DNA from: Myxococcales bacterium
GTDB taxonomy: Bacteria > Myxococcota_A > Polyangia > Fen-1088
Direction of reading: 5' to 3'
DNA length: 64,000 nt
NCBI GenBank assembly: GCA_022184915.1
Contig: JAGTJU010000008.1
Coordinates: 6,760-70,759 of the forward strand
The position numbers and the translations under genes are program-made. Shown here one piece after another: positions 28,708 through 60,338 of this stretch. The first letter of the stretch is position 1, and each line of letters starts with the position of its first letter. The notes beneath the pieces were generated by a model that was not told the DNA's origin, searched no databases, and saw nothing but the letters and a program-made list of their open reading frames with translations.

Positions 28708-28744
28708 TAACGTAAGCCGCCTTGCGCCCTAAGCTTGCTGCCGG
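28708..28744 (-). repeat. repeat-family copy E (inverted, 5' 37 bp only)
   Basis: The reverse complement is CCGGCAGCAAGCTTAGGGCGCAAGGCGGCTTACGTTAG. Together with copy D it forms an inverted pair around the IS. Confidence 0.7.
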
Positions 28745-41795: not shown

Positions 41796-41813
41796 CAAAG
41801 GAATCGTCAGAAA

Positions 41814-43144: not shown

Positions 43145-43430
43145 TTAGTCTCAGGGGTAAAGCACTCAAGGAGGCCGCGGCCACTCTTGACATAAGCGTG
43201 AAAACAGTTGAGCAGTATTGGGCGCGGATCTACGTCAAGATTGGCTGCAATAGCCGGGAAGCTGTTGTAGGCCAGCTTGTTGAAATGATGACTGAAAGCC
43301 CAGATAACTATTTATCAGACCCACGCACAAGCGGCCGTGCCTAGGACGTTCCAAGCGCGAGACGTCCATGTGTCCTATTTTGGCGTGCGTACAGGAACTA
43401 CAAGCGCCACGTCCCTCCGCGGCAAATTTG

Positions 43431-43608: not shown

Positions 43609-45111
43609 TCAAGCCGGCCACAGATCCGAATCACATCCCGTCTCGCCCGTGCCTCCGGGCGGTCCCCTCGCCGGTGACCACGTGGGCACCTCCGCTGAGA
43701 GGCCCTTGTAGGCCAGGATCGTCTCGATAGCCCCCCGCTCTTGCACAGGGCCCAGCACCTTCATCGGCCCCGCGCAGCGCGGGCACACCAGCACCTCGTG
43801 AGCGAACACGCGCCGCATGAGCTCGGCCCAGCTCATCGCCGCTGCGTCGCCTCGCTCCCGTAGCTCCGTGACGTGGTCCTCACCCCCATCACCTTCGCCC
43901 TCGCGCTTGCCACACCCTCGTCGCGCCTTGCGCCCTGCCCCTCCCGGCACGATGCGGGCCCGATCCGCCGCCGCAGGCGCGAACACCCCGTGGTAGCGAA
44001 CCAGTTGGGCGCGCGGACGTGGCACCAACGCAACCAGCTTCTCGATGAACTCCTCGGGCGTAAACGCAACGTGCGTGGTGCCGTCGCGCCACGGCCGTTT
44101 GAGCCTGACGGCCACTCGCCCGTCGGGCAACTCCGAAAGCCTATCTTCGCTCAGCGGTGGCCGTGCGATGTAGCGAATCAGCCGCTCCAGGCCGTCCCTG
44201 TCGTTGGCTGCGATGCGCGTGCTGGCGTGCAGGTTGAAGCCCTCCACGAACGCGCACTGCTTCCCCAACACGTAGGGTTCCCACGACGCGATCGGATCGT
44301 TGCCGAGCCGCATGACCGCTTGTCCTCGGCGCCTTCCCGTGGCGATGAGGGCTTTGACCGAAGCGCCTGCGATCACGGAGAGCGCCTCGGCGTCGGCAGC
44401 GTCTCGTTCCTCTGACGAGGCAAGCGCCCGCGTTACACCCTCCCAGATCCGCGCGGTCACCTCGGCCACCTCCTCATCGCGCGGAGGTGGCGTGGCGAAG
44501 AACGCGGGCCGCCCGGGCGTGTCGACACGGAACACGCCGTCGGTCACAACGGAATGAAAGTGAACGTTCAGCGCAAGGCCCGAGCCGAAGCGCTGAATCA
44601 CCGTCACGGCGCCCGTGGCGAGCGCGCCGCGCACTCCGGCCTTGCGCGCACGCTTTCGGTACCACCGGCTCACCTCGCGCAGAAAGACCCTCAGCACCAC
44701 GCTGGCCAGGTGTGGCTCGCGCGCCATGCGGTAGCGAAGCGCGTGCGGCACCGTCAGCACCCACTGGCGTGCTGGGACCGCCGGAAACACGTTGTCCACC
44801 ACGTGCGCGGCCGTCTCGGCCATGCGCCGCCCAAGGCAGCTGGGGCAAAAGCCTCTTCGTTTGCACGAAAACGCCACGAGCCGCGTCTCGGCGCAGGCTT
44901 CGCAACGAACGTTGACGAACCCCTTGCCCAGAATCCCGCAACCCAGATACGCCTCGAACTCCGCCGCCACGAAGGCGGGCAGAAAACCACCCTCGCCTTG
45001 CAGATTGTCGCGGAACGTGAGCCAGGTGTCCTGCACCACGCGGTGAAGCTGCGTCTTTTCAGGCTCCCGGCGCCGATACCCCGAGACTTTCCCTGCGGCT
45101 CTGTCGACCAC
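43609..45111 (-). CDS. IS91-family (Y2 HUH rolling-circle) transposase
   Basis: The N-terminal zinc-ribbon is CEACAETRLVAFSCKRRGFCPSCLGRRM. The HUH-like motif is NVHFHSVVTDGVF. The C-terminal …RYIARPPLSEDRL…VRYHGVF is the tyrosine region. Confidence 0.7.
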   Translation of the reverse strand: MVDRAAGKVSGYRRREPEKTQLHRVVQDTWLTFRDNLQGEGGFLPAFVAAEFEAYLGCGILGKGFVNVRCEACAETRLVAFSCKRRGFCPSCLGRRMAETAAHVVDNVFPAVPARQWVLTVPHALRYRMAREPHLASVVLRVFLREVSRWYRKRARKAGVRGALATGAVTVIQRFGSGLALNVHFHSVVTDGVFRVDTPGRPAFFATPPPRDEEVAEVTARIWEGVTRALASSEERDAADAEALSVIAGASVKALIATGRRRGQAVMRLGNDPIASWEPYVLGKQCAFVEGFNLHASTRIAANDRDGLERLIRYIARPPLSEDRLSELPDGRVAVRLKRPWRDGTTHVAFTPEEFIEKLVALVPRPRAQLVRYHGVFAPAAADRARIVPGGAGRKARRGCGKREGEGDGGEDHVTELRERGDAAAMSWAELMRRVFAHEVLVCPRCAGPMKVLGPVQERGAIETILAYKGLSAEVPTWSPARGPPGGTGETGCDSDLWPA

Positions 45112-45285: not shown

Positions 45286-46038
45286 ATGTGGACGCAGACG
45301 CTTGCCCAAGTCCTCTGCCGAGGTGGGTGGGCAACCGCGTTCGCGATGAGCGTGGCGGCCTGCTCGGTCGTGACCTACCAGCCTGTTTCGGGCCTTTCAC
45401 GCCCCACGGCCATCAGCGCCGAGCGGAGAAACTTCGAGGGCCGGCGGATGGTGCTGCGCTGCTTGCCCGGCGGCTACCTCGACCCGCGCGACACCCAGCG
45501 CCTCTGCGCGCGCGTGCAAGCGTTGTTTGCGGGGCAAGGCGCCGAGGTGCAGATGGCGCTCACCCGCGCCGGCACCCAGCTTGGTGGGCCGCCCGCGCAG
45601 GCGGGGGCGGTCGACCTCGTGCTCGAGCTGCGGAGCCACTTGATTCACAAAGAAAGCAACGTCTGGCTGAGCATCCTGTCCGGCCTCTCGCTCACGCTGA
45701 TTCCCGCGATCAGCAGCTTTTCGTTCGCGCAGGACGTGGTCGTGCTCGACGCGGATGGCTTTCAACTGGCTTCGGAGACCCTCGAGGGACGCTTCGTCAC
45801 GTACTTCGGGGCGGGCGTGTGGAGCGTCAACAAAGTGCTGGACCTGCTGGTCCGCGAAGAGGACGAACACCTCACAGGCGACACGGCCAAGACTGACTTC
45901 TCGAAGGATTTTTATCGGCAGTTGAGTCAAATCGCGCTGAACGCGCACCTGCGCGCCCGGGTGATGCGTGCGTTCGACGAACCCCCGCGGCCGAACGCCC
46001 CTCCCCGGCCCCCCCTGTCATCGGCGGCACCACGATGA
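45286..46038 (+). CDS. lipoprotein, hypothetical; first gene of a 13-gene envelope operon
   Basis: Signal/lipobox AFAMSVAACS, 250 aa. ATGA overlap with the next gene. Confidence 0.5.
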   Translation: MWTQTLAQVLCRGGWATAFAMSVAACSVVTYQPVSGLSRPTAISAERRNFEGRRMVLRCLPGGYLDPRDTQRLCARVQALFAGQGAEVQMALTRAGTQLGGPPAQAGAVDLVLELRSHLIHKESNVWLSILSGLSLTLIPAISSFSFAQDVVVLDADGFQLASETLEGRFVTYFGAGVWSVNKVLDLLVREEDEHLTGDTAKTDFSKDFYRQLSQIALNAHLRARVMRAFDEPPRPNAPPRPPLSSAAPR

Positions 46039-46673
46039 CCACGTACTTTTTGTTGTTCCTGCTCGATCACTTTCTGTCGGGCCGCCACGCCGATCCCTCG
46101 CCCGGGGTGGTCCATGGCAAGGCGGATGTCAGGAACCTCGAATGCACGCGGCTCAGTCAGGCCGTGGCGCACGACCGCCGGCCTGGCGAAGTGGCAGAGC
46201 CCTCACCCCGGGTCACCTGGGACCGGGGCTCGGCGCTCGTCTGCCGGCAGCGCTACGTGCGCCTTGGCGAGCGGGACCCGCGCGACGAAGCGGTGCTGTC
46301 TTCGCTCGGGCGCCACGTGGGTGACATCACCCGCGAAGCCAGCGCCGCCGTGGCGGGTGACGTCGTTTGGCACGTCGACGCCTTTTACCCGGACCTGTTG
46401 GTCTCGGCGAAGATAGCGGTGGCCGCAAAAACGAACCTCGTCGAGACCGGCCGTTCGGTGTCGGACCGGGTGCCCCTGCTCGCCGCGGGCGACTTGGCGG
46501 TGTTCGGCAAGCTGTCCCCCGTGCGGTCCTTGCCGATGGCGTGCGTCCGCTACTTTGCGGAGGGCTCCCTGGGTCCGCGGGACGTGCTGCTTGCGATCGC
46601 CTTGCTGGACGAGCAGGAGACGCAGCTCCACGGTGGCCTTTGCCAGCAAGGCACCTGGAGGTGGCTGAGGTGA
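46035..46673 (+). CDS. hypothetical protein
   Basis: 212 aa with a hydrophobic N-terminus (MTTYFLLFLLDHFLSG). Overlap-coupled on both sides. Confidence 0.4.
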   Translation: MTTYFLLFLLDHFLSGRHADPSPGVVHGKADVRNLECTRLSQAVAHDRRPGEVAEPSPRVTWDRGSALVCRQRYVRLGERDPRDEAVLSSLGRHVGDITREASAAVAGDVVWHVDAFYPDLLVSAKIAVAAKTNLVETGRSVSDRVPLLAAGDLAVFGKLSPVRSLPMACVRYFAEGSLGPRDVLLAIALLDEQETQLHGGLCQQGTWRWLR

Positions 46674-47866
46674 AACGCCCTCGTCTCCTCGCAGCCTGGG
46701 CGCTCGCCTTCGTGGCATCCACCGCGCACGCCAACGACGCGGAGCTCTCGCCGGCGCAGCGGACGGAGATGGAGGCGTTGCGCGGAGAGATTGCCGCCGG
46801 AATCCAGCTGCAAGCCTACGACCTGCTCGACGAACTGGTCCACGGCTGGCTCCAGCGCCCCGTGTTCGACCAGCAGACGCCCGTCGTGCTGGGAGACATT
46901 GGGGTGCCCGTGGGCTTCGGCAGCGGCATGAAGGCGCTCGTCGAGACCCATCTCGCGGGCCTTTTGGTGGACAACCCGCGCACGAACGCCGTGCTCGTGC
47001 ACTGCCCACGCTGCACGGCGGTCGTGATTCACTCGGGCGCCCAAGGCACCGTCATCTCCCGCGGTGTGGACAATCCAGCGGCCCTCGCCGAGGCGGGAGC
47101 TTCGCTGGGCAGCCACCACGCGCTCTTCGTGGACTTCGAGGCCGAGGGCACGGCGCTGGTCCTGCGCGCACGCATCACGCGGCTCGAGCCGACCCTGCCC
47201 ATCGTTTACGCGAAGACCCTCTCCACCACCACCTCCGCCCCGGCGCTCCTCCGGACGGGCGAACGCCTCAAGAGCGCCCGGGAAGCGCGCCAGGAGTTCG
47301 ACGATGCCCTGCGAGGCCGCAGCTGGTACCTGGTGCCGTTGCGCATGGGTCTGCGCGCTTATGCCGCGGCAGAGGACGTGCCCGTGGTGGCACAACCCTT
47401 CGGTTGGATCCAGATGGGGGTGGAGGGCGCGCTCAGCCAGGCCCGTTTGTGGACGGCGGGCTTTGCGCTTGGCTTTTCGTGGGCGCCGGAGTCCCACTGG
47501 GGGTGGTTGGCGCAGGCGCGGATCTCACGGCTTTTGAGCGGCGCCGCCACGTCGCTCACGCGCCCTGACCTTTACGCGTTCGTGGGCGCTTCGATCATCT
47601 CCGTTCACGGCGATGGCTCCTCGATCTTTCGCAACCGCGTTCCCTCGCTGGAAACCCTGCTGGGACAAGTCAACCGGGTCGAACCCAAGGAAACGTTCGC
47701 TGCGTTCCCGCTGGGGCTCGAGCTGCGGGTCAAAAACCGCATCGGCGTGGGCGTGTATCTCGAGTCGGCGCCCGCGTTGAGTGACGCCGACGCGATCGGA
47801 ACGTATCTGGATCTCGGCATCGTGGCGTTTCAGTCGTACGGCGTGGAGGTGTCCTTTTGCTTCTGA
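46670..47866 (+). CDS. secreted protein, outer-membrane beta-barrel-like (C-terminal …VEVSFCF)
   Basis: GTG start overlapping the previous stop. Signal VKRPRLLAAWALAFVASTAHA. The C-terminal aromatic residue is typical of OM beta-barrels. Confidence 0.5.
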   Translation: MKRPRLLAAWALAFVASTAHANDAELSPAQRTEMEALRGEIAAGIQLQAYDLLDELVHGWLQRPVFDQQTPVVLGDIGVPVGFGSGMKALVETHLAGLLVDNPRTNAVLVHCPRCTAVVIHSGAQGTVISRGVDNPAALAEAGASLGSHHALFVDFEAEGTALVLRARITRLEPTLPIVYAKTLSTTTSAPALLRTGERLKSAREARQEFDDALRGRSWYLVPLRMGLRAYAAAEDVPVVAQPFGWIQMGVEGALSQARLWTAGFALGFSWAPESHWGWLAQARISRLLSGAATSLTRPDLYAFVGASIISVHGDGSSIFRNRVPSLETLLGQVNRVEPKETFAAFPLGLELRVKNRIGVGVYLESAPALSDADAIGTYLDLGIVAFQSYGVEVSFCF

Positions 47867-48846
47867 GGCGGGGCCGAGCCCCGGGCCGCGTGGCGTACGT
47901 GCTCACGCTGCTGGCGGCGCTGTGTCCGAAGGCCGCGTCCGCCGCCACCGAGACCACGCGCGAGGCGTTGGCGCGCATGGAAGAGACACTGGTCATGAAG
48001 TTCACGGATGAGGGGCTCGCCCCACAGGAGCTGACGCCCGCCATCGTCGTGAGCGTGACCCCCGCGTGGGAGGCCAGCGCCACCTGGTATCCCAACGCGG
48101 CGCTTTCGTCGCTGGCGCGTGTGTTCGGCAGCGCGGCGTTGCGCGCCTGCGAGGCTTGCATGTCCCCGCGCACCTACGTGGAGCCGGGCCGGGTGGAGCA
48201 AGTGTCCACCGCGCCCAGCCTGGACGAGATCGTGCGCCTCGATGAAGGCAGCCGCGGGCAGGCGGCCCCGGCCCGCACGGCGATTTGGCTCGATGAAACG
48301 CCCGAGGGTGTGTCCCTGCGGATCGTGAACCTCGCAAACGGGCGCATCATCCTGGCCGCGAACATCGACCCCCTGCTGACGCGCACCGCCCGCACGCGGC
48401 GCTCGTTCACGCTGGCCCAGGAGCTCGACCGCCGATCGCGCGGCGACAGCATCACCCACACCTTTGTCGACCTCGCCGTTTACCCCGGCCAACACCTGTC
48501 GCTCGATTGGGCGGAGCAGTGGGGCACCACCAACAGCAACCTGTCCGGGTTTTCTCTCTCTTTTTTCGATCCGGTTTTGGGACTGGGTGGCGCTTACTAC
48601 CGCGCCCTGCCGGATGCGATGAACATCTCCGTGGGCGCCAAAGTTCTCATGGCCTTTCCCACCGCCCTGGTGCGCGCCTTCGGGGGCGAAGACGACGTCG
48701 TCGATCCCCTGTTGACGGGCGTGTTCCTCGCCCGCGTGCCCTTCGGACGTTCCAACTACGGCGTCATTTTGTCGGCCTCCACCAACGGACGCATCGGCAT
48801 CGGAATCTCACTCATGAACACCTCGCTGCTCCCCTTCGTGCCATGA
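47857..48846 (+). CDS. secreted/periplasmic protein, hypothetical
   Basis: TTG start overlapping the upstream stop. Signal …VAYVLTLLAALCPKAASAAT. 329 aa. Confidence 0.45.
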   Translation: MLLRRGRAPGRVAYVLTLLAALCPKAASAATETTREALARMEETLVMKFTDEGLAPQELTPAIVVSVTPAWEASATWYPNAALSSLARVFGSAALRACEACMSPRTYVEPGRVEQVSTAPSLDEIVRLDEGSRGQAAPARTAIWLDETPEGVSLRIVNLANGRIILAANIDPLLTRTARTRRSFTLAQELDRRSRGDSITHTFVDLAVYPGQHLSLDWAEQWGTTNSNLSGFSLSFFDPVLGLGGAYYRALPDAMNISVGAKVLMAFPTALVRAFGGEDDVVDPLLTGVFLARVPFGRSNYGVILSASTNGRIGIGISLMNTSLLPFVP

Positions 48847-49478
48847 CCAACGCGCGTATCGCCTTGCTCGTTGTCTTTGTCCTGTGCGGCTGCGCGGGGC
48901 GCAACTACACCTACTATCTGCTCGATCCCCCGCCCGCCACGCATCCGGCGCTGACCGAGGGCGGCGTGCTGACGCGTCCCCTGGGATTCGGAAGCACCAC
49001 CGTGATGAAGGTGCGGTGGAATGACGGCAACGTCATCACGGAGGTGGACGTTCCGGTGCTCGCCACCGGCCAGCGCATCGTGATCGAACACGGCGCCGGC
49101 AGCCCGGACGTCAAGACCATCCCCGCGACCCGCGTGGTCCCGCCGCCGCCCACGCGTGCGGACGAAGCGCTCGTGGAGGCGTACCGCGCCCGCGGCCTGC
49201 GGGTGGACGAGGACGCGCCCGAGGTCAGCATCGTGCGCGCCCGCGCCTTGATGCAGGATGCGATCAAGGGCGGCAACTATCACGTGGCGCTCGAGTGGTG
49301 CGAAACGGTGCTCGCACGGTATAAATTGCACCCCGAGTTTCTCCGCGCCAAGGCCTCCTTGCTGCTGATGATGGGCGAACGTGACAAGGCCATCGAGATT
49401 TACGAGCAGGTCGAAGCGATCGAAAGCGACCCGGCGGTCCGCAGGAAGCTGGAAGAGCTTCAACGTCAACAAAGATAG
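48843..49478 (+). CDS. lipoprotein with helical (TPR-like) C-terminus
   Basis: Lipobox LCGCAG. ATGA overlap with the upstream gene. The C-terminal …ALEWCETVLARYKLHPEFLRAKASLLLMMGERDKAIEIYEQVEAIE is TPR-like. Confidence 0.5.
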   Translation: MTNARIALLVVFVLCGCAGRNYTYYLLDPPPATHPALTEGGVLTRPLGFGSTTVMKVRWNDGNVITEVDVPVLATGQRIVIEHGAGSPDVKTIPATRVVPPPPTRADEALVEAYRARGLRVDEDAPEVSIVRARALMQDAIKGGNYHVALEWCETVLARYKLHPEFLRAKASLLLMMGERDKAIEIYEQVEAIESDPAVRRKLEELQRQQR

Positions 49479-49486
49479 GAAGAGAC

Positions 49487-50221
49487 ATGCAGCTTCTTGG
49501 ATTGGCCCTTTTGGGTTTCATCGTTTGGTTCGGGTTTCGGGATCGCAGCAGCGACCAGGCGATCTCGGCCTTCGACGCACACGCGCTGGTCATGGTCCTC
49601 GTGGGCTCGGGCGCCGCGGTGCTCGTCAGCTCGCGGGGGCGCGATGCGCTGAGCACGCTCACGTCGCTGCGCGAATTGGTGCCCGGGCTCCGCGGCTACG
49701 GCGCCGCGAGCGCCGCCATGGAAGCGGAACGCAGCGAAGCGAGCGCTGCGTGGGAGGGAGCGCGGCGGCGCGAGGCGCTGGCCCTGGCCGAGCGCACCCG
49801 CTTTGCACCGGTCAAGCGGATGATCGAGCTGCTCATCGGCCGGGCCTCGGAAGGCGAGGCCACCAAGACCTTCATGGAGCTGCGGCACGCCGAGATCGCG
49901 CGGCTGCAACCGGCCATCAACAACTGGGAGATGTTGTCGAAGCTCGGCCCCGCCTTCGGCATGGTGGGCACCATCACGGGCATGATCCGTCTGTTTCAGA
50001 ACATGAGCGCCGAGAACCTGAACATCGGCGCCGCGATGTCCCTGGCGCTTCTGGCCACGCTGTACGGAGTGGCCTTCGGCGCCGGCGTGGCGGGGCCCAT
50101 CGCGCAGCACCTGAACCGGCTGCTCGACGAGCGGCTGGGGGTTCTCGAGCGTTGTGAAAAAAGCGCCATCGACTCGGGTTCTCGGGCCACCGTGGCGGCG
50201 CTCGAAGCGAGGGTAGGCTGA
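49487..50221 (+). CDS. MotA/PomA-like four-TM proton-channel stator subunit (MotA/TolQ/ExbB superfamily)
   Basis: TM1/TM2 close together at the N-terminus, a ~100-aa cytoplasmic loop, then FGMVGTITGMIRLF and AMSLALLATLYGVAFGAGVAGPIAQ as the TM3/TM4 signature. Confidence 0.7.
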   Translation: MQLLGLALLGFIVWFGFRDRSSDQAISAFDAHALVMVLVGSGAAVLVSSRGRDALSTLTSLRELVPGLRGYGAASAAMEAERSEASAAWEGARRREALALAERTRFAPVKRMIELLIGRASEGEATKTFMELRHAEIARLQPAINNWEMLSKLGPAFGMVGTITGMIRLFQNMSAENLNIGAAMSLALLATLYGVAFGAGVAGPIAQHLNRLLDERLGVLERCEKSAIDSGSRATVAALEARVG

Positions 50222-50224
50222 GCC

Positions 50225-50848
50225 ATGCAGCGGCGCCCCCTGCAGCACGAAGAGAGCTGGCTGCTCAGCTACGCCGACCTCATCACCAACTTGCTGCTGT
50301 TCTTCGTGGTGCTGCTGACGGCGGCGAACCTGAGCCGCGGCAAAATGCAGCAGATCGCCAAGAGCATCTCGGGCAGCGAAAGCCCGGCCAGCCTGGCCTC
50401 GATTCAAAAAGAGATAGAGGCGCAGATCGCAAGCAAGCAGCTCGAAAACATGGTTCGCACCAGCATGTCCGAGGCGGGGCTCGAGATCTCGATGAACTCA
50501 GGGCTGGTGTTCGATTCGGGCAAAGCCGTGATCCGGCCTGACCTGGAGAACACGCTGATGGCCATGTTGCAAGTGCTCGAACCCTATGCCCGAAAGTACG
50601 GCTTCGCCGTCGAGGGCCACACCGACGCCACCCCCATCACCGGCGGCGCGTTCGCCAGCAACTGGGAGCTGTCGAGCGCGCGCGCGATCGTGGTGCGGCA
50701 TCGGCTGGAAGCCGTGGGCATTCCCCGCGACCGCATCCGCGTCGAAGGCTATGCGGACACCAAGCCGCTTGCCGCAGACGAGCTTGCCGGTCTCAGTGTC
50801 GAAGAAACCCTGGCGCGCCACCGGCGCGTGGTCGTGAGGATATTCTGA
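50225..50848 (+). CDS. MotB-like stator subunit with OmpA-type peptidoglycan-binding domain
   Basis: N-terminal SWLLSYADLITNLLLFFVVLL has the MotB plug/TM with the conserved Asp. The C-terminal GHTDATPITGGAFASNWELSSARAIVVRHRL is the OmpA-family PG-binding motif. Confidence 0.75.
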   Translation: MQRRPLQHEESWLLSYADLITNLLLFFVVLLTAANLSRGKMQQIAKSISGSESPASLASIQKEIEAQIASKQLENMVRTSMSEAGLEISMNSGLVFDSGKAVIRPDLENTLMAMLQVLEPYARKYGFAVEGHTDATPITGGAFASNWELSSARAIVVRHRLEAVGIPRDRIRVEGYADTKPLAADELAGLSVEETLARHRRVVVRIF

Positions 50849-52644
50849 TGCGCATCTGGCTTGCCTTCGTAACCCTCCTGTGTGCGGCGCCTGCGGCGGC
50901 ACAAACACTCGTGCCCCAAAAGCACGTTCCCGCTGCGGTCCTGGAGCAACTGCGGGCTGTGGAGGCGCAGTTCGAGGCGGCCTTGGCGCGCGACTGTGCG
51001 CCCGAGCGCTGCCTGCCCAAGGGCTGCATCTACCGAGACCATACGGTGGTGGATCTGCCGCGGGCCCGGTCGTTGCCGGGTTTCGACGAAGAGGAAGGTC
51101 CCGGCAGCGTGCCGCTGCAGGAGTACCTCACCAGCGCACAGTGCGAGTTCGTGCACGAAAAGAACGTGAATGCACGTGACCTTCAGGCGCTGGCGCGGCG
51201 GCTCGAACAGAAGCTCTCGCGGGGCTGGCTGAAGGTCAGCATCGCCCGCCAGGCCTTAGAGCCCCTCTCGAGCGCGCTGGCCCAGCCGCCCGCGGACGAC
51301 GAGGGCGCGGCGCAGACACCCGAGACACAGAGCACGCCTTCCCCCACGGCGGCGACGCCCCCGCGGGAACAGGAAGCGCCTGCGCGCGAGTTGTGGCTCA
51401 CCTTGCTCCCACACTTTGCGTGGATGATCGCGCTCGTTCTGGTGACGGCGTCGGCCATGACGCTGATCTGGTCGCTGCGGCGGCTCGGTCGCGAGAGTCT
51501 CGAGGAGCGCGCCCTCCTGGCCGAACTCGGCGCCCAAGCGTCGCACGACAGCAAAAACTCGACGGAGGCCGACACGGAGGCAGAGGACAAAACGCCTCTG
51601 CGAGACGACCCCGCCTTCGTGGCCGCTGCCCACGGCTTGTGGAGCGACCGCATCGCCCAGATCCAGCTGGGCAAGGACAACGGCGTCATCGTCGAGCTGC
51701 TCCGACAGTGGCTCAAGCAAGGAAACTTTGCCTTGCTGGCCAAGGCCATCGTGGTGTTCGGCGATCGCCTGTCGCTGGCGTTCCCGGCCGATGGCGACCT
51801 GGCGGTGCGCAAGGTCGAGTTCGCGGACTACCTGCGCCAGCTGGATGAGACCACCTTGCCCTCGGACGCGGAGTTTTTCCGTAAGCTCGGCCATCACGCG
51901 GTGTCATCGACCTTGCTGTCACAGACCGATGCCGCCGTTTACCATAGCCTGCGCGACGAGTTCGGGATGGCCGGCGTGGCGGCGCTCATGGCACGCCTGC
52001 CACCTCGCTTCGCAGCGCTGCTCTTTGCGCTTTCACCCACCGAGTTCCATCAAGACCTGGCGCGCGCCTTGGCGCCCGCCGCGCGCGCGCTGGTGGCGGG
52101 GCAGCTGCTCCTTTCGAACCGCATGGCGCCCGAGGAGCAGACGTATCTGTTTGCCGCGTTGGCGGCGGCGCGCGCCGGCGGCACCTTGCCCGCGGCCCCC
52201 CCCGAAGGCGTGCTGGATCGTGGCCGTGAGATCGACGCGGCAGGGCCGATGGCGCTGCTGCTGCAGGAGCTCACGCCCGACGAGCGCCGGCGCTTGTTTG
52301 CCGAGGCGGTCGCGCGCTGGCGCGGCGGCCTGCCCCCGTGGTGCCAAACCATCGTGGCGCCCGCCCTGTTGCTAAACCTGCCCGCCCACACGCAGGCTGA
52401 GCTGCTGCTGGAGGTGGACGTGCGGGAGCTGGCGGCGTGGCTGTGGACGTTTCCCGCAGCGGCACGGCAACCGCTGGTCGACACACTGCCGACGGCGCTG
52501 CAGAACGCCCTGCGCGCCCACACCGATTTTGGATCGCGCGCCGAACAGGTCGCGCTGGCGGCGCGGGGGCGAAGCGCACTGGCCGCGGCTGTGCAGCGCG
52601 CGGCCGCAGCCGGCAAGCTCAGCTTCGAGACGCTCTGGGCTTGA
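50848..52644 (+). CDS. signal-peptide + single-TM membrane protein with ~370-aa cytoplasmic FliG-like (armadillo-repeat) domain (hypothesis)
   Basis: Signal MRIWLAFVTLLCAAPAAAQ, TM WLTLLPHFAWMIALVLVTASAMTLIW. The C-terminal helical repeats, especially VDVRELAAWLWTFPAAARQPLVDTLPTALQNALRAHTDFGSRAEQVALAARGRSALAAAVQRAAAAGKL, parallel the FliG C-terminal/MgtE-N pattern. Confidence 0.45.
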   Translation: MRIWLAFVTLLCAAPAAAQTLVPQKHVPAAVLEQLRAVEAQFEAALARDCAPERCLPKGCIYRDHTVVDLPRARSLPGFDEEEGPGSVPLQEYLTSAQCEFVHEKNVNARDLQALARRLEQKLSRGWLKVSIARQALEPLSSALAQPPADDEGAAQTPETQSTPSPTAATPPREQEAPARELWLTLLPHFAWMIALVLVTASAMTLIWSLRRLGRESLEERALLAELGAQASHDSKNSTEADTEAEDKTPLRDDPAFVAAAHGLWSDRIAQIQLGKDNGVIVELLRQWLKQGNFALLAKAIVVFGDRLSLAFPADGDLAVRKVEFADYLRQLDETTLPSDAEFFRKLGHHAVSSTLLSQTDAAVYHSLRDEFGMAGVAALMARLPPRFAALLFALSPTEFHQDLARALAPAARALVAGQLLLSNRMAPEEQTYLFAALAAARAGGTLPAAPPEGVLDRGREIDAAGPMALLLQELTPDERRRLFAEAVARWRGGLPPWCQTIVAPALLLNLPAHTQAELLLEVDVRELAAWLWTFPAAARQPLVDTLPTALQNALRAHTDFGSRAEQVALAARGRSALAAAVQRAAAAGKLSFETLWA

Positions 52645-52650
52645 GACCCC

Positions 52651-54654
52651 ATGCCGCGCCTCGCGCTTTTTGGCTTGTGCCTGTGGGCAGCGACCACCGC
52701 GTGCAGCAAGGTGCCGCTCACCAACGTCGACGCCGGCTTCGAGCTGGCCGACGCCGTGTGGTTCGAGGACGAGCACACGCTCTTCGTATTTTACAAGTTG
52801 CAGGCAGCGCAGGGCCTGGGGGCCGAGAGCCAGGTCGAGCTGGGATTTCGCACCGATGAGCTCACGCAGGCCTTCGCCTCCGTCAGCAGTTTCCCCACCG
52901 TGCATCAACACGTGGCCGTGGATTGTGGGCAGAACGCGCGCTGCGGAAGCACCAGCCTCAGGCTGGCAGAGCGACCCCGGCAGGTGACGCTGCGGCTCCG
53001 CTATCATCGAGAGGGCAATGTGTTTTTGGCAACGGACACGCTGCTCACCATCGTGGGCGCAGGCCAGCGCTACAACCACCGCAGCCTCATCGTCTACGGC
53101 GTGTTCGATGAAACCAACACGCGCGTGTTCTGGCGGGCGCGCCACCAGTTCCCGAATTTGCGCAACCAAGAGGTCGAGGCGCTGGGACTCAGGCGCCGGG
53201 TCAGCATTGCCGGCCGTCGTTTCGGTGACCCAGGGGCCCTCCCCGACGACAATCCCTACGGCTACGGAGCCTTCGACACCTGTCCCCCGTCGCTGCAGGC
53301 GCTCGACGCCAACGAACTCGAGACGCGCGCCCGGTCGGCGCTCGACCGAGAGCCGCTGCCTGCCGAGGCCGCTGCGGCCCCGCTCGTGTGCGCCACCGCG
53401 ACCGTGGACGATGCAAAAGGCCGCTTTGCCGCCACGGCGCTCGCACGGAAGAACCCTCAGACCCGGCCGGCGTTCCCCGCGTTGCGTAGCCCCATTCGCC
53501 CGAACCGGGCGCTGGGCTACGTGCTTCGGCCCTGCACCCGTGTGATCTCCGACGTGCACGCCGCCATGCAAAGTCAACGGCTGCTCTTCGTGGACGCCCC
53601 CGAGGTGTGCATCGATGACTGGATGATGCCCGGCTTCGCCGAGCAGCTCGCGGCGCGTATCCGTACGCGCATCGACGAAGAACGCACGAGGGGAGAGGAC
53701 ATGGTGCTGACCTTGGCGCTCCATCACGACGATCCCACGGGGGCCCTGGCGGACAGGGTGGAAGACGCTTTGTCGATCGCGCTGGCCCCCGAGCGGGAAA
53801 AGACGACGCCCCGGCTGACGGGCGCGTTCGTGTTCGACAGCTTCGGGCATGGCATCACGCGAGAGCCCGTGCGACAGATGGTGCTGTGGTGCCCCGCCCG
53901 GGCCGGCAGCGTCCTGGATGAGCTCCCCGAAGGGGCCCCCCGGGCGTGCCCTCTTTTGCCCGACTTGCCGCAGCTGACCTTCGGTGCGTTGCGGGCGAGC
54001 GTGCTGCCGATCCTGCCCACGCGCGCGCAGTACCTGCGGTTTCTCGAGACCTACGGCGAAGCGCAAGCGGGGCGCATGCGTGCGCTCACCTTCTTGGCGC
54101 CCGAACGCACCCCGCTGTCCCGGAACGTGCAGGTGGGCGACTTCGGGGTGGCCACGTTCTTCAACGACGAGGCGATCTCGGCCTTGCCGGGTGATGTGTT
54201 CTCCCACTGCCCCACCGAAGATCCACGCACGGCCGCCGTGGTGTTTTTCGACGAAGCCGAGGCCACGACGCGGCTCCTCGCGGAGCTGCCGCTCGTTCAC
54301 GAGACGGCGCCGCAACCGAGCTACGCGCTTGGCATCGCGTGGGATTTCCCTTACCTCACACGGCTCGACTACCAAGTGACCGTGGCGGGCGCCGTGAGCG
54401 CCTTTTCGTTGTCGGTCCCCTTCGGCATTTCGGGCACCAACACCTCGTACTTCGGCACCGAGCTGTGGCGCACGGGGGAATTTCCCCTGCGCGAAGCGCT
54501 TCTGCAGTGTGAGCGCTTCTGCGATCATCCCACCTTTGATTCCGCGGGGGTCTACAACGTGCTGGCAACGTTCGCTTCGACATACAAGCAAGAGTGCTAC
54601 CGGCCGCGGTATCCGTCCGTCCTGCCGGAGGAGGCGTTTCCCCTTGATCCGTAG
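52651..54654 (+). CDS. large lipoprotein, hypothetical
   Basis: Lipobox LWAATTACS. 667 aa with many Cys pairs. Confidence 0.5.
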   Translation: MPRLALFGLCLWAATTACSKVPLTNVDAGFELADAVWFEDEHTLFVFYKLQAAQGLGAESQVELGFRTDELTQAFASVSSFPTVHQHVAVDCGQNARCGSTSLRLAERPRQVTLRLRYHREGNVFLATDTLLTIVGAGQRYNHRSLIVYGVFDETNTRVFWRARHQFPNLRNQEVEALGLRRRVSIAGRRFGDPGALPDDNPYGYGAFDTCPPSLQALDANELETRARSALDREPLPAEAAAAPLVCATATVDDAKGRFAATALARKNPQTRPAFPALRSPIRPNRALGYVLRPCTRVISDVHAAMQSQRLLFVDAPEVCIDDWMMPGFAEQLAARIRTRIDEERTRGEDMVLTLALHHDDPTGALADRVEDALSIALAPEREKTTPRLTGAFVFDSFGHGITREPVRQMVLWCPARAGSVLDELPEGAPRACPLLPDLPQLTFGALRASVLPILPTRAQYLRFLETYGEAQAGRMRALTFLAPERTPLSRNVQVGDFGVATFFNDEAISALPGDVFSHCPTEDPRTAAVVFFDEAEATTRLLAELPLVHETAPQPSYALGIAWDFPYLTRLDYQVTVAGAVSAFSLSVPFGISGTNTSYFGTELWRTGEFPLREALLQCERFCDHPTFDSAGVYNVLATFASTYKQECYRPRYPSVLPEEAFPLDP

Positions 54655-55462
54655 GCCAGGATCGGTGGGTTTCGCGCTGGCGCTCGCCCTGGCGTTGCCC
54701 GCGGGAGCACGAGGGCAAACGTCTGCTGTGGTCACACCGCCCGTATCATCCCCTCTGCGTGCAGCCGATGGCGCTGCGCTCGCACCTTACCGTCTGCCGC
54801 TCGATGCGCTCATCGAGCGCACGTTGGGCAGCACCTCCCGGGCCGTGCGTTTCGATTGGCGAAGCAAAGCCATCGGCGTGGGCGCGTTCGGCAGCCAGGT
54901 GCTCGAGCTCAACAACTTCGGGAGCGCGCGCTTCGGGCTCCTGGCCCGCCGCCCCTGGGGCAGTCTGATGACGGAGCTTTCGCTTGCCCGCGTCGAGACC
55001 TGGGGCAGCACGAGCGCCACGCGCTTGTCGCTCACGCCCTACCGGCAAGCCGGACGGCCGAGCCGGTTCGAGCTGGGGCTGAACGTGGGCTATCCTTTGG
55101 CCGAGGGTGTGGCCACGGCGCGCCCTGGGTTTTTCCCGGCCACCGAGCTCGTGTTCTCGGTGAACGCGGAGCTCCGCTACCTTTACTATCCCGGCGCGCT
55201 CAGCGGCGCCACCTTCGGGCAAGTGGCCCGCGCGGCCCTGTCACCGCGGCTGTCGGCGCGCGAAATGCGCAACCTCGAGGACGACCGTTTGCCCGCCATG
55301 GACGTGGACCGCGGCCGTTACGGCCTTCTCGTGGGCTTTACCTTCGACATCTATTTCGCAAAGGGCGGATTTGTCTCCCCGCGCGTGATGATGGCTCCGT
55401 TTGGCAGCGCGGCCCTGGGGTGGTGGTGGGATCTGGCGTTCGCGGCCGGGTGGATGTTTTGA
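54640..55462 (+). CDS. secreted outer-membrane beta-barrel-like protein (C-terminal …AAGWMF)
   Basis: The TTG or GTG start overlaps the upstream gene. Signal …GFALALALALPAGARGQ. Alternating beta-strand pattern with a terminal Phe. Confidence 0.45.
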
Positions 55463-57369
55463 ACGTGCGTCTGCTCTGTCTGGGCGTCAGCGTGGCGCTG
55501 GCCTCGGCGGCACAGGCCGAGCCGAAGGCGCCCCGCGTTCCGCCACAAACGCTCGTATTCTGGAACGCGCGGCTCGCCTTGCGCGAGGGCCGCCCCACCG
55601 ACGCCCTCAAGCTGTGGATGCTTCACAATGGCCTGCGCCAGGCGGGGCAGCCTGCGGCAGAAGAAGGTGATTTTTCGTCGGTCGTGTGGGCCGCGCTGGG
55701 AGAGCTTGGCCTTTGCCAACAGACGTTCCCGCGCGATCAAGACCAGGGCGCGGGCCTGTGGCCCCTGGCGTTGCACAACTACGTGGTGCGCGCCGCCTTT
55801 GCGCCCGAGCCTCCCCCGCGCGCGCCGCCGTTCGCCGCCTTCCAGATGGCACGCCAGGCCCGCACATTCTCGCTGCACGATGTGCTCGACGCCGAAGAGC
55901 TTCGTTCTGTCCGCTTTCACCCCACGGCATGCACGCTGCCGGGCTTGCCAGGGGGCTTCATGGGCCGCGATCGCGGCCGCATGGGTGATCGCATCGAGAT
56001 GATGCGCTACCTGCGGCACACCCTGTCGACAGCGCTCGAAACGGTGACGCCGGGCAAAACCCGGGGCATGGAGGCCGTCGAGGCGCGGCTTTTCGATCTC
56101 GACCTGGCCCTCATCGACGCCGAAACGCGCCGCCTGCGCCTCGCGGGAGTGGAAGCGCGCACGAGGGCGCGTGAGCTAGGGCTGTCGCCGGAGGCGGTGT
56201 TGCGCGCGCGGGTCGCGGACACGGCGTGGCCGCCCACGTCGGCCGAGGGGCGTTTTCTCCGCAGAACGCTGACCTGGCGTGCCGACGCGTGGCTGACGCT
56301 CGAGCGCGAGCGGCGTGTGTTTTTGTTTTCGCTGGCGCGCGCGTACGCCCCGGATGACGCCGCGGCCGAAAGGGTGGCCCTCGCGGTCATCGACGCGCTC
56401 GTCGTGCGGGGCCTCGGCGCGGAGGTGCAGCAGTGGGTGGGCGCCACAGGGACGTCACCGCGTTTTCGTGACGCCCTCACGCAGGGTGAGCGGGGCCTGC
56501 GCCTTCTCACCTTGGACAACGCCTCTGGCTTTCGCGAGCGGAGCGCGGTGGCGCTTCATCGGGCCGTGGCCTTCCTCGAAGCCGGCCAGCTCAAAGACGC
56601 CCTCCGCGCGTTTGCCTACGCGCTGGCGGAGGCCGAGACCTCGCGGGAAGCCGCCGCCCTCTCGGCGCTGTGCCGTCGCTGGCTGGCCTACGTGCTCGCG
56701 CAGTTTCAGGCCGACGCCGAGGTCATCCGCATTCTCGAGACCGTGCTGCCGAAGCCGGATTATCGGATCGTGGCCGCCGACCTGGTATGGCGGGCGGCCC
56801 TGAGGCGGGATGCCGCCTCGTTCGAGGCGCTCATGGCCACACTGCCGCGCGGGAGCGCCTTCGACACCGACGCAGCGGATCTGCGCAAGCTGGCCCACGG
56901 CCGCATCCCCGAGATGCTGAGCGCGCTCGCGCAGCGAAGCCAAGCCGAACCCCACCTCACGTTGCGCCTGTGCGCGCGCCTGCTCGACAACCTGGAGGCA
57001 GAGGCCACGGACGTTCGTCGTAGCCACCTGCCCACGCTGCGCGGCCTGCTAAGCCTTTTCGACGAGATCGCCGCGCGCACGACGAGCGCCGGCGCTCAGA
57101 AGCGCAGGGCCGAAGAGCTCGGGGCACGCAGCCGCGCCCTGCTCGAGGGCCTGCGGGCGCCCCTGGCCGACGACGCCGCGCACGCGCTGTCCCCACGGGC
57201 AGAGACGTTTGCAGGCAACATACGCGTGGCACCGAGCGATCCTTTGCCCTGGCCCTTCCCCGCACCCGACCCGAAGCCCACGTCGGTGTTCGTTCCGCTG
57301 CGTCTGCAGCCGCTCGAGTGGCGGGATGAGACCGGAGCCCTGATCTTCGGCTGGAGTGTGAGCGATTGA
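55459..57369 (+). CDS. large secreted protein, hypothetical (Arg/Ala/Leu-rich helical)
   Basis: The TTG or GTG start overlaps the upstream stop. Signal MNVRLLCLGVSVALASAAQA. About 636 aa. Confidence 0.5.
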   Translation: MNVRLLCLGVSVALASAAQAEPKAPRVPPQTLVFWNARLALREGRPTDALKLWMLHNGLRQAGQPAAEEGDFSSVVWAALGELGLCQQTFPRDQDQGAGLWPLALHNYVVRAAFAPEPPPRAPPFAAFQMARQARTFSLHDVLDAEELRSVRFHPTACTLPGLPGGFMGRDRGRMGDRIEMMRYLRHTLSTALETVTPGKTRGMEAVEARLFDLDLALIDAETRRLRLAGVEARTRARELGLSPEAVLRARVADTAWPPTSAEGRFLRRTLTWRADAWLTLERERRVFLFSLARAYAPDDAAAERVALAVIDALVVRGLGAEVQQWVGATGTSPRFRDALTQGERGLRLLTLDNASGFRERSAVALHRAVAFLEAGQLKDALRAFAYALAEAETSREAAALSALCRRWLAYVLAQFQADAEVIRILETVLPKPDYRIVAADLVWRAALRRDAASFEALMATLPRGSAFDTDAADLRKLAHGRIPEMLSALAQRSQAEPHLTLRLCARLLDNLEAEATDVRRSHLPTLRGLLSLFDEIAARTTSAGAQKRRAEELGARSRALLEGLRAPLADDAAHALSPRAETFAGNIRVAPSDPLPWPFPAPDPKPTSVFVPLRLQPLEWRDETGALIFGWSVSD

Positions 57370-57974
57370 GCGATCCCCTGCGCCGCCGCCAATTCGCCGC
57401 ACGCCGGGCCGCCCTCCGGCACGCCCTGACGGCCGCACGGCAGCGGGCGCACAGCCGCTTGCCGCAGCCTCGGCGGCGGCGAGGCGCCCGTGCCCTCGCC
57501 ATCGCCCTGCTCCTCGCGCTCGTCGCCCTGGCCCGCTGCCTCGCGGAGGCGCCCCCGCCCTCGCCCCCGCCCCCGCCGCAAGACGCCGCGCCCGTCAGCG
57601 CCCCGCAGCCCCCGGCCCCGGCCGCGTCCCCCCCCCGCTCGGCCCCCCTGCCTCCCCGCCCCCGGCTGCGTGTGGCCAGCGCCCCGACGCCTGATTGGAT
57701 CGATGAGTTCAGGCTGCAGGTGGGCGCCCGCAGCCCGCGCCTCGCCCGCTGCCTCACGGGCGCTGCGCTTCCCGGACGTCTGCGTTTTTCTGCCACGGTC
57801 GATCGCAACGCGGGGATCGTCTCCGATGCCGAGATCGAGGTGGCCTCTGGGGGCGGCCCGAGCCGCGACCAAAGCCGCTGCCTCGTGGACGTGCTCCGCC
57901 ACCCGGCTTACGACCTGCGGCGCGGGCAGGCCCCGGCCGTGCCCGAGCGCGTGAGCCTGGTGATCGAGTTCTGA
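57366..57974 (+). CDS. TonB/TolA-like topology protein: cytoplasmic N-terminus, one TM, Pro-rich spacer, C-terminal globular domain (GltG/AgmX-like)
   Basis: TTG start overlapping the previous stop. TM ALAIALLLALVALARCLA, Pro-rich linker PPPSPPPPPQDAAPVSAPQPPAPAASPPRSAPLPPRP, and a ~100-aa C-terminal domain. Confidence 0.5.
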   Translation: MSDPLRRRQFAARRAALRHALTAARQRAHSRLPQPRRRRGARALAIALLLALVALARCLAEAPPPSPPPPPQDAAPVSAPQPPAPAASPPRSAPLPPRPRLRVASAPTPDWIDEFRLQVGARSPRLARCLTGAALPGRLRFSATVDRNAGIVSDAEIEVASGGGPSRDQSRCLVDVLRHPAYDLRRGQAPAVPERVSLVIEF

Positions 57975-58023: not shown

Positions 58024-59103
58024 TTGATAGCCGCTGCCTTTCCCATGAGCGCCTCTGGCACCTTCACGGCCTATCTGGTCGAGCCCGCGTTCGAGGCGGC
58101 GCTCGAAGCGGAGCTGGGGAGCGCGCCGGGCCGCAGCCCCCGGTGGCCGGCCGTGCTCACGCGCCCCCGCGGTCACGACGGGCCCGAGGATCCGATGTTC
58201 GCGCGCCAGGTGTTGCCCGAGGCGCAGCTCATCAAGGCGCCTGCGCCGGAAGCGCTCGTCGAGCAGGTCCTCGAGGCGAGCCTCGCGCGGGTGCAGGGCG
58301 CGGTGGCGGGGCCTTTCGTGTTCACCCCCGACGCCTCACGGTACCGGGCGCTCGCGGCCGCCGTGGGGCCCTGCACGCAGCGCCTCAAAGCGGGTTTGAA
58401 AGCGGCGGGGCACAAAGGGCTTCCCCCCAATCCACAAGCGCTGCGGGCGGCGTTTCGGCAGGGCCGGCAGGTGCTGCAAGTGGCTTTGGTCGGACACACG
58501 TCCGCCCTCGTATCGTGCAGCGTGCCCCGCGCGTGCGTTGGCGGCGGCTTCGACATCTCGCCCTGGCCCGCGGGTCTGGCCCCCGTGGCTCAGGATCGGC
58601 AAGCCCCGTCCCGGGCGTACAAGAAGCTCGAGGAAACCTTCGCGTGGCTCGGCCGCGCTCCCAGGGCTCACGAAACCGTGGTGGATCTCGGCGGCGCTCC
58701 CGGGGGGTGGGCGTGGACGGCGCTCAAGCGCGGCGCCCAGGTGACCGCGATCGATCGCGCGCCGCTGTCTCCGCCCGCGGCGGGGCACCCGGCCCTCGTG
58801 CAAGTGCAGGGCGATGCCTTTGCGTTTTCGCCCCCGGCCCCCGTCGACTGGTTGCTCTGCGACGTCATCTGCGAGCCCGCGCGCTCGCTGGCGCTCATCA
58901 CCCGCTGGGCGCGCGAGGGCTGGTGCCGTCACCTGGTGGTAACGGTGAAGTTCAAGGGCGCCACCGGCAATCATCTCGCCGTGTCTCCGATCGTGTCCGT
59001 GCTGACCACGGCGGGCTTCAGGGTTGCGCGGGTCAAGCACCTGCACAACAACCAGAACGAGGTGGAAGTGTTCGCCTCCCGCGAGGGCGATCAACACGGC
59101 TGA
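58024..59103 (+). CDS. rlmM: RlmM-like 23S rRNA 2'-O-methyltransferase (THUMP-like N-terminus + FtsJ-type MTase)
   Basis: SRAYKKLEETFAW, VVDLGGAPGGWAWTAL (SAM motif I) and DWLLCDV fit the RlmM/FtsJ pattern. 359 aa. Confidence 0.6.
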   Translation: MIAAAFPMSASGTFTAYLVEPAFEAALEAELGSAPGRSPRWPAVLTRPRGHDGPEDPMFARQVLPEAQLIKAPAPEALVEQVLEASLARVQGAVAGPFVFTPDASRYRALAAAVGPCTQRLKAGLKAAGHKGLPPNPQALRAAFRQGRQVLQVALVGHTSALVSCSVPRACVGGGFDISPWPAGLAPVAQDRQAPSRAYKKLEETFAWLGRAPRAHETVVDLGGAPGGWAWTALKRGAQVTAIDRAPLSPPAAGHPALVQVQGDAFAFSPPAPVDWLLCDVICEPARSLALITRWAREGWCRHLVVTVKFKGATGNHLAVSPIVSVLTTAGFRVARVKHLHNNQNEVEVFASREGDQHG

Positions 59104-59855: not shown

Positions 59856-59882
59856 CCTTCGACGTTTCCTCGGAGACCCTCC

Positions 59883-60323: not shown

Positions 60324-60338
60324 ACCCGCCCCGCACCG

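Follow-up and report, generated by a model that had tools for sequence, protein, structure and literature searches.

What does a flagellar-type stator drive where no other part of a flagellum appears to be encoded around it? This question is raised by a gene cluster in contig JAGTJU010000008.1 of a Myxococcales bacterium (assembly GCA_022184915.1), of which we analyzed a stretch of 64,000 nucleotides (nt), hereafter the window. Positions 45286-57974 of the window are tiled from end to end, on the plus strand, by 12 open reading frames (ORFs), here called G01 to G12, which encode a MotA/MotB-type pair (G06 and G07), a membrane protein with a predicted FliG-like domain (G08) and nine further proteins of the cell envelope. 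Ion-driven 5:2 motors power flagella, Tol-Pal, TonB transport, myxobacterial gliding, the type IX secretion system (T9SS) and Zorya defence. The cluster most likely belongs among these ion-driven trans-envelope machines, as an undescribed variant. On balance we lean, if only just, toward the more specific reading that the 12 genes encode one self-contained, non-flagellar trans-envelope machine driven by ion-motive force, in which MotAB acts on G08. The stator genes and G08 lie as follows.

49487..50221, plus strand: G06, MotA-type stator A subunit, 244 amino acids (aa), four transmembrane (TM) segments (PF01618)
50225..50848, plus strand: G07, MotB-type stator B subunit, 207 aa (MotB_plug and OmpA)
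50848..52644, plus strand: G08, predicted bitopic inner-membrane protein with a FliG/MgtE_N-like cytoplasmic domain, 598 aa (AlphaFold2 model, Foldseek, Pfam)

Judged by sequence, G06 and G07 are a flagellar-type MotA/MotB stator, as a first-pass annotation made from the DNA letters had supposed. G06 matches PF01618 (MotA_ExbB) in Pfam at 3.7e-16, and its best NCBIfam matches are PomA, MotA and MotP, with TolQ marginal at 0.009. Searched against PDB sequences, a profile of 22 G06 sequences finds flagellar MotA/PomA at E 4.7e-14 over positions 3-220, the whole cytoplasmic domain included; the single sequence likewise retrieves flagellar MotA/PomA chains only, and ExbB, TolQ, ZorA and GldL are absent from the G06 PDB-sequence matches at E<=1. 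The hydrophobic segments read from the sequence span residues 3-17, 32-48, 153-175 and 186-210, and the cytoplasmic region (approximately residues 50-150) aligns almost gap-free with C. sporogenes MotA. The family keeps K/R93-R94 and E102, eight positions apart, in an alignment whose register is ambiguous by one residue. With that same uncertainty of register, their spacing equals that of E. coli MotA R90 and E98, the residues that contact FliG (PMC7564593). Its partner G07 carries MotB_plug (2.6e-14) and OmpA (4.3e-16) domains in Pfam, has MotD and MotB as best NCBIfam matches, and gives no Pfam match to PF02472 (ExbD/TolR); Asp18 within SYADLITNLL and the peptidoglycan-binding motif NWELSxxRA are kept in all orthologues compared. 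Flagellar stators stand apart from Exb/Tol/Agl units in their large cytoplasmic interface, their TM bundle of four helices, the plug with its linker and the OmpA-type anchor (PMC12505986), and G06/G07 share with them the plug, the OmpA domain and, by alignment, a full-length cytoplasmic domain. A flagellum to go with such a stator is nowhere in sight: no flagellar gene occurs in the module or in the flanks scanned with Pfam (those of the window cluster and of two distant loci), which agrees with the earlier remark that flagellar structural genes are missing, and the previously characterized myxobacteria lack flagellar motility (PMC2330069).

What, then, could the cytoplasmic face of this stator engage? 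G08 follows the stator genes directly, and the first-pass annotation had called it a FliG-like inner-membrane protein, a description that structural comparison bears out. Its AlphaFold2 model has a mean pLDDT of 73.9, rising to 85-90 in the C-terminal half. Model and alignments together predict a cleavable signal peptide, a periplasmic domain, a disordered proline-rich linker, one TM helix followed by Arg/Lys residues, and an all-helical cytoplasmic region of approximately 345 residues (about 255-598). In a Foldseek search of 50848-52644 against the PDB, the eight best matches are all FliG (best 3ajc, E 3.9e-4, probability 1.0), full-length FliG being aligned over about 330 columns, and MgtE structures stand at ranks 9, 42 and 43. 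With 28.6 bits, the Pfam family MgtE_N passes its cut-off of 25.9 in G08, and 31 of 34 orthologues match it as well; in the same 34, FliG_C appears weakly in nine and FliG_M in three. The modeled periplasmic domain (29-136) runs αββαβ (helix 29-49, strands 55-68 and 91-103, helix 109-123, strand 129-136), an order of strands and helices whose topology resembles that of a ring-building motif (RBM). Invariant residues include C50, C55, C60 and C99, together with the motif LLPHFxWM. The signal peptide, the four invariant periplasmic cysteines and the positive residues after the TM helix jointly imply that the FliG-like part is cytoplasmic and faces the MotA loop. Unlike FliG, which is soluble and docked on the C-terminus of FliF, G08 brings its own signal peptide, periplasmic domain and TM helix.

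How far does this family extend? Approximately 280 homologues of G08 are all annotated as hypothetical, and a search of 1.84 billion representatives yielded 170 relatives in all. The full-length ones among those listed measure about 530-650 aa and keep the architecture, the shorter ones align as fragments, and no match to a canonical FliG (about 330 aa) occurs among the listed relatives; a weak MgtE_N signal is seen in six of ten distant relatives scanned. On the strength of the model, G08 thus appears to constitute a separate small family with a cytoplasmic domain of FliG/MgtE_N fold, whose similarity to FliG is, at the level of sequence, remote.

Do the 12 genes belong together? Loci were sought in one genome per species with a G08 alignment, relying on two peptide patterns, and the 12 window proteins were then run by tblastn against the resulting 76 loci. 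In 76/76 loci, in Myxococcota and in one Bdellovibrionota metagenome-assembled genome (MAG), the detectable genes all keep the same order and lie on one strand; the complete set of 12 is present in 41, and the others end at contig edges, except for one frameshifted assembly. G01 comes first in every complete locus. The modal junction overlaps across loci (-4, -10, -4, -1, -11) are those of the window, the 10-nt TTG overlap before G04 being modal in 42 of 59 loci and the 11-nt TTG overlap before G10 in 34 of 64, the latter in agreement with an independent gene call. Protein lengths are kept and the ORFs are intact, at 28-85% identity across two phyla. Median identity to the window rises from 41% in G01, the lowest, to 77% in G05, the most conserved module protein, which retains 54% even in Bdellovibrionota; MotB (70%) and MotA (64%) both rank below it. 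This block structure is far beyond chance.

The hosts include several species of Archangium, some with complete genomes, Hyalangium, a Cystobacter MAG, many Myxococcaceae and Archangiaceae MAGs, and MAGs of Polyangia, Polyangiaceae and Bradymonadia; the Bdellovibrionota host is a Silvanigrellaceae MAG. No record titled Myxococcus xanthus, Corallococcus or Stigmatella came out of the scan, a result that for a G08-seeded search of one genome per species by two peptide patterns is no more than suggestive, and the same scan did recover relatives at 34-35% identity. Flanking gene families are common only to a clade of about ten close relatives, and the loci of Silvanigrellaceae and Bradymonadia sit among unrelated housekeeping genes. 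Since the flanks differ in this way between taxa, the block is a self-contained module. No extra conserved neighbor was found beside it across the loci, and the window neighbors RlmM and TolQ are absent from all 76; with the unrelated flanks, this absence fixes the unit of inheritance as exactly G01-G12. Tightly packed, the 12 genes are passed on together as a block. An all-against-all hhalign comparison detected no paralogy among the 12 families, its single strong match being spurious. This match arose from an ORF in one Archangium MAG (locus L020, 8664-10001) whose MotA frame has no stop and continues into MotB to give 447 aa, a natural fusion of the two or else an error of assembly. A further oddity is a typical high-GC (guanine plus cytosine) 12-gene module in a MAG labeled Bifidobacterium breve (locus L056, contig CALQBK020000155.1), a label that is almost certainly a binning error.

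The block had earlier been credited with 13 genes, and with 12 tight junctions out of 13. The interval leaves no room for a thirteenth gene, since the 12 ORFs already fill it, and direct reading gives 11 junctions, of which eight are start/stop overlaps (in order: ATGA, GTGA, 10-nt TTG, ATGA, TGATG, 11-nt TTG, TTGA, TTGA) and three are gaps of 8, 3 and 6 nt. The junction 49478/49487, already singled out as the widest, keeps that distinction at 8 nt. Two Logan contigs with identical DNA, processed by a separate gene-calling pipeline, give the same products of 329, 211, 244, 207, 598, 667 and 272 aa. The nine genes around the stator and G08 are the following.

45286..46038, plus strand: G01, lipoprotein of 250 aa without known family; lipobox and C-V-T-V-Y-Q-P motif kept in orthologues
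46035..46673, plus strand: G02, 212 aa, hydrophobic N-terminus, probably exported, without known family; ATGA overlap with G01
46670..47866, plus strand: G03, secreted protein of 398 aa ending in ...EVSFCF, putative outer-membrane beta-barrel (signal peptide, C-terminal signature)
47857..48846, plus strand: G04, secreted protein of 329 aa ending in ...LLPFVP, without known family (signal peptide)
48843..49478, plus strand: G05, lipoprotein with an N-terminal domain without known relative, a PPPP linker and a C-terminal TPR (lipobox, TPR_19)
52651..54654, plus strand: G09, lipoprotein of 667 aa with several beta-sandwich (Ig/FN3-like) domains, one alpha/beta domain and many invariant cysteines
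54644..55462, plus strand: G10, secreted protein of 272 aa ending in ...GWMF, putative outer-membrane beta-barrel (signal peptide, C-terminal signature)
55459..57369, plus strand: G11, secreted protein of about 636 aa, mostly helical, weakly TPR-like (signal peptide); an alternative start at 55465 gives 634 aa
57366..57974, plus strand: G12, bitopic, proline-rich protein ending in VIEF (alignment of 20 orthologues)

Signal peptides, lipoboxes or a TM segment predict that all nine are exported or membrane-anchored. Lipoboxes in G01, G05 and G09 and signal peptides in G03, G04, G10 and G11 are conserved across orthologues, which upholds the lipoproteins and exported proteins of the first-pass annotation; G02, a lipoprotein in the orthologue at L014, conserves cysteines and a C-terminal GxWRWL motif. 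That annotation had also read the FCF and WMF endings of G03 and G10 as marks of outer-membrane barrels. The endings are there and are conserved: the final F of G03, in a hydrophobic-x-hydrophobic-x-F signature, occurs in all ten representative orthologues, and G10 shows an LGW(A/M)(F/L) signature, its orthologues ending mostly in aromatic or hydrophobic residues. Both C-termini are like outer-membrane beta-signals, a likeness that by itself makes the two proteins putative barrels, and neither has a family or PDB match. G04 conserves a C-terminal LP(F/V/I)(L/V/I)P. The C-terminal TPR of G05 appears genuine (TPR_19 at 24.8 bits in Pfam; family profile against consensus TPR proteins, 8.8e-8), and no relative is known for its N-terminal domain, about 90 residues long. 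G11, with TPR_2 at E 0.05, many conserved Trp and a conserved C-terminal FGW, finds no relative among PDB sequences by profile except designed helical bundles.

G12, at 57366-57974, had been taken for a TonB-like protein, and this description survives in its topology and fails in its domain content. An Arg-rich cytoplasmic tail, a TM segment, an RCxC motif and a proline-rich spacer lead to a C-terminal domain of about 95 aa with two invariant cysteines. Neither G12 nor its 19 orthologues match TonB_C, AgmX/PglI or FHA in the curated-family scans, so that at the level of domains no sign is seen of the TonB_C or AgmX/GltG relationship suggested for it; as a positive control, the neighboring protein at 60339-61304 scores TonB_C at 2e-18 in the same library. 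The TM segment of G12 is poly-Leu, without the conserved His/Ser of the SHLS type, and its profile finds no relative among PDB sequences. In Pfam and NCBIfam, the 12 proteins and divergent orthologues of G02, G03, G04, G10 and G12 together match MotA, MotB, MgtE_N and TPR only; profile searches of PDB sequences with G03, G05, G08, G09, G10, G11 and G12 give the TPR of G05 as sole family match, and G02 and G04 have no PDB relative.

How might these parts work together? In the machine we favor, MotB would fix a MotA5B2 unit to the peptidoglycan, and ion flow, probably down the proton-motive force, would turn the MotA ring, whose charged cytoplasmic helix (K/R93-R94...E102) would push on the FliG-like domain of G08, the one product of the module with a folded domain on the cytoplasmic side. 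With its layout of a FliF-FliG fusion, G08 may oligomerize into a ring or track, and its periplasmic domain would hand the movement or force on to the proline-rich G12, to the TPR-type products G05 and G11, to the lipoproteins (G01, G09) and to the putative proteins of the outer membrane (G03, G04, G10). As output, the moving or remodeling of an outer-membrane or surface component is most likely, in the service of motility on surfaces, adhesion, secretion or predation. Both Myxococcota and Bdellovibrionota include well-known predators, which makes the link with predation a correlation, and the TPR-rich periplasmic scaffolds around other stators (PflA/B, MotX) offer a lead for the TPR proteins.

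Several observations weigh against this proposal. The Foldseek matches of G08 to FliG have low TM-scores and E-values between 4e-4 and 0.07; among PDB sequences, FliG is missing from the matches of the G08 profile even with the limit relaxed to E<=10; the EHPQR motif of FliG is not seen in the G08 sequence, and the charges of the FliG torque helix cannot be mapped onto it. The MgtE_N fold is also that of a regulatory domain of Mg2+ channels. For the periplasmic domain of G08, the Foldseek matches to PrgK, PrgH and FliF fall short of significance (E 0.6-0.9), with scores much like those of OsmC-like folds. At the outer end of the chain, the location of G03, G04 and G10 in the outer membrane is putative, and the searches gave no functional clue for the large lipoprotein G09. 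The interaction of MotA with G08, and rotation itself, are proposals.

If MotAB does not push on G08, what else could it energize? In an arrangement akin to Tol or Ton, which we consider unlikely, the stator would energize G12 in the manner of TonB or TolA, G12 would open or stabilize G03 and G10 for uptake, export or tethering, and G08 would be an accessory or scaffold. The order of parts in G12 (cytoplasmic tail, TM segment, proline-rich spacer, small C-terminal domain) is that of TonB, TolA and GltG, the TPR protein G05 and the lipoproteins sit beside the stator as CpoB and Pal sit beside TolQR, and the Agl-Glt motor does talk to the TonB-like GltG (PMC3169522). However, G07 is of MotB type, with plug and OmpA domains and without PF02472, the PDB matches of G06 are confined to flagellar MotA/PomA, all 20 G12 members lack the TonB_C that the genuine neighboring protein shows at 2e-18, as they lack an SHLS-type His/Ser in the TM segment, and the conserved FliG-like G08 would be left unexplained. 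The role of G08 could itself be another one, that of a sensor, regulator or stator scaffold (responding, e.g., to Mg2+) within an envelope-homeostasis complex or one remodeling the peptidoglycan and outer membrane, with MotAB acting elsewhere. This we hold to be less probable again: the sole Pfam family above cut-off in G08 is indeed MgtE_N, regulatory in Mg2+ channels, and MgtE cytoplasmic domains do figure among its structural matches (ranks 9, 42 and 43), yet the eight best of these are FliG, full-length FliG over about 330 columns among them, G08 has neither a CBS domain nor a channel part, and the module encodes no other cytoplasm-facing partner for the charged loop of MotA.

Given the lineage, could the cluster instead be a divergent Agl-Glt/Nfs gliding or spore-coat machine with a swapped motor? 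The parts lists do look alike, with outer-membrane proteins of about 270 aa to set beside GltA (256 aa) and GltB (275 aa), a weakly TPR-like protein of about 640 aa beside GltC (673 aa; PMC3169522), lipoproteins and a proline-rich bitopic protein, and Glt-like paralogue clusters whose function is unknown exist in M. xanthus (PMC3169522). We give the idea little weight, however, since the motor B subunit comes from a different family, no large TPR protein like GltD occurs here (the largest weakly TPR-like product being the 636-aa G11), G12 lacks FHA and TonB_C, and the Glt and Nfs machines themselves have no FliG-like component; moreover, the 12 families show no internal paralogy, and the G08-seeded scan gave no M. 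xanthus, Corallococcus or Stigmatella record, yet did reach relatives at 34-35% identity. Almost no weight is left for a decaying flagellar remnant or a Zorya-like anti-phage system built on a MotAB-type unit. A flagellated ancestor of the myxobacteria has been proposed (PMC2330069), and G07 matches ZorB models in PADLOC, the best at 9e-19. Against a remnant stand the absence of other flagellar genes from the module and the flanks scanned, and 12 intact ORFs that keep their lengths at 28-85% identity across two phyla. Against Zorya stand the lack of any ZorA, ZorC, ZorD or ZorE match in PADLOC (ten proteins scanned, G02 and G04 left out), the mere 244 aa of G06, without the long tail of ZorA, and nine envelope proteins unfit for a defence system. 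The ZorB-model matches reflect generic MotB homology, and a Zorya or other defence assignment was rejected. Conservation across two phyla and the PADLOC result largely exclude both the flagellar relic and the Zorya-like defence.

Returning to a MotAB stator that acts on G08, a bolder version can be entertained, in which G08 forms a ring through its RBM-like domain, presents a FliG-like cytoplasmic face and is turned by peptidoglycan-anchored MotAB, which would amount to a second rotary motor, this one non-flagellar, built on the MotA-FliG interface. We regard this as a tentative idea, less likely than not yet with a substantial chance of being right. If true, it would drive a new apparatus of periplasm and outer membrane in predatory Myxococcota and Bdellovibrionota, be either a sister to the flagellar MS/C-ring rotor or a radical re-use of it, and end the generalization that large-interface stators bearing plug and OmpA domains are exclusive to flagella. 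The coupling of MotAB to G08, if real, would already mean a new envelope machine in Myxococcota and Bdellovibrionota, offer an independent system in which to study the engagement of a FliG fold by MotA, and bear on the origin or re-use of the flagellar rotor-stator pair. To our knowledge, the MotA-FliG torque interface is in every known case a matter of the flagellum alone. The plug, the OmpA anchor and the large cytoplasmic interface have been described as specializations for flagellar rotation (PMC12505986); here the module sets a stator of this type beside a protein resembling a FliF-FliG fusion, in lineages whose cultured members have no flagella, and adds nine envelope proteins without known relatives beyond TPR. 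As the hosts include the cultured, genetically approachable Archangium gephyra, A. violaceum, A. minus and Hyalangium, the question is testable.

The surroundings of the module in the window are of a different character, the whole window being rich in insertion sequences (ISs). Upstream lie transposases of the IS91 and ISAzo13 families, and downstream an RlmM-like methyltransferase and a TolQ/ExbB-ExbD-TonB_C set. The IS91-family transposase (Y2_Tnp, Zn_Tnp_IS91; 43609-45111, minus strand) ends 175 nt upstream of G01, and because of this proximity the cluster may, in this genome, have had its native promoter region interrupted or exchanged for another. Promoter and terminator scans of the cluster gave no informative signal, and an Rfam search was empty. 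Farther upstream, 27376-28708 and 41813-43145 are 100%-identical inverted IS copies of 1333 nt, each with a 412-aa DDE_Tnp_ISAZ013 transposase, that bracket 13.1 kb; the pair may form a composite transposon and is a sign of recent IS activity. Two transposase-like ORFs (HTH, rve_3 integrase core) at 9550-11133 and 30071-31606 (minus strand) contain a repeat of about 71% identity (10191-10440 versus 30643-30892), and an 866-aa protein at 24350-26950 (minus strand) combines collagen triple-helix repeats with DUF7151, a choice-of-anchor I domain and a phytase-like esterase domain. On the other side of the module, the RlmM-like methyltransferase (58024-59103) is followed at 59196-61304 by a TolQ/ExbB protein of 219 aa, an ExbD/TolR protein of 146 aa and a TonB_C protein of 321 aa, a set that in other genomes is nowhere linked to the 12-gene module.

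How does the module compare, finally, with the systems already described? No description of the cluster was found in the full-text literature searched, which includes a 2026 gliding review and a 2025 MotAB survey and leaves most subscription journals outside; a prior description elsewhere cannot be excluded. The 2026 gliding-motor review names AglRQS as the only motor for Myxococcota. The view that no characterized system matches gene for gene has stood, in that ExbD/TolR, FHA, TonB_C and ZorA/C/D are all missing. With Tol-Pal and TonB-ExbBD, the module has in common an ion-driven inner-membrane unit of 5:2 type, a proline-rich periplasm-spanning protein, outer-membrane partners and a TPR protein, whereas its stator is of MotAB type and G12 lacks TonB_C, TolA domain III and the SHLS TM motif; the canonical TolQ/ExbB-ExbD-TonB_C set is a separate one, at 59196-61304. 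The likeness to the T9SS/gliding motor of Bacteroidota (GldLM with GldK/N rings) is one of concept, a peptidoglycan-spanning ion-driven motor that moves lipoprotein and periplasmic ring parts fastened to the outer membrane, and an analogy only: no relation in sequence or fold to GldL, GldM, GldK or GldN is apparent, and T9SS has no cytoplasmic FliG-like partner, its output being periplasmic via GldM.

Closer at hand are the Agl-Glt and Nfs complexes of M. xanthus, which are likewise trans-envelope complexes of Myxococcota powered by a proton channel of the MotA/TolQ family and likewise comprise small outer-membrane proteins, lipoproteins, TPR proteins and a proline-rich bitopic inner-membrane protein. 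The domains of AglR/Q/S are PF01618 and PF02472 (PMC3169522, Table 1). The Agl B subunits are thus of ExbD/TolR type, without plug or OmpA, whereas G07 has both; GltG carries FHA, a TM segment, a proline-rich region and TonB_C, whereas G12 has neither FHA nor TonB_C; and the M. xanthus systems possess the large TPR proteins GltD and GltI, no FliG-like protein, and motor genes located separately from the structural ones. The module proteins gave no match to a Glt-type domain. The module appears set apart from Glt/Nfs by domain features and descriptions, not by sequence comparison with GltA/B/H or NfsA-H.

The nearest likeness in the drive itself is to the core of the flagellar motor: a four-TM A subunit with a full-length cytoplasmic domain, a B subunit with plug, channel Asp and OmpA domain, a partner at the inner-membrane face with a predicted FliG/MgtE_N-fold domain, and, in the modeled periplasmic part of G08, an αββαβ order like that of a ring-building motif. 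The module differs from it in having no genes for FliM/N, export apparatus, rod, hook, filament or P/L-ring, in fusing a remote FliG-like part, in which no EHPQR is seen, to its own membrane anchor, and in replacing the axial structure with nine unrelated envelope proteins; its named hosts Archangium and Hyalangium, moreover, are myxobacteria, a group described as without flagellar motility (PMC2330069). A precedent for the architecture of G08 is the natural FliF-FliG fusion of the non-flagellated Chlamydiaceae (Bergeron 2016, PMC4768692), in which one polypeptide joins a signal/TM segment, RBM-type periplasmic domain(s), a TM segment and a cytosolic FliG-like region, a layout that the predicted one of G08 resembles. 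The chlamydial protein is recognizably FliF, has two TM segments and about 330 aa, is without adjacent MotAB and has a proposed injectisome role, whereas G08 has about 600 aa, a cytoplasmic region of about 345 aa that is the size of FliG, and a place that is always directly after motAB.

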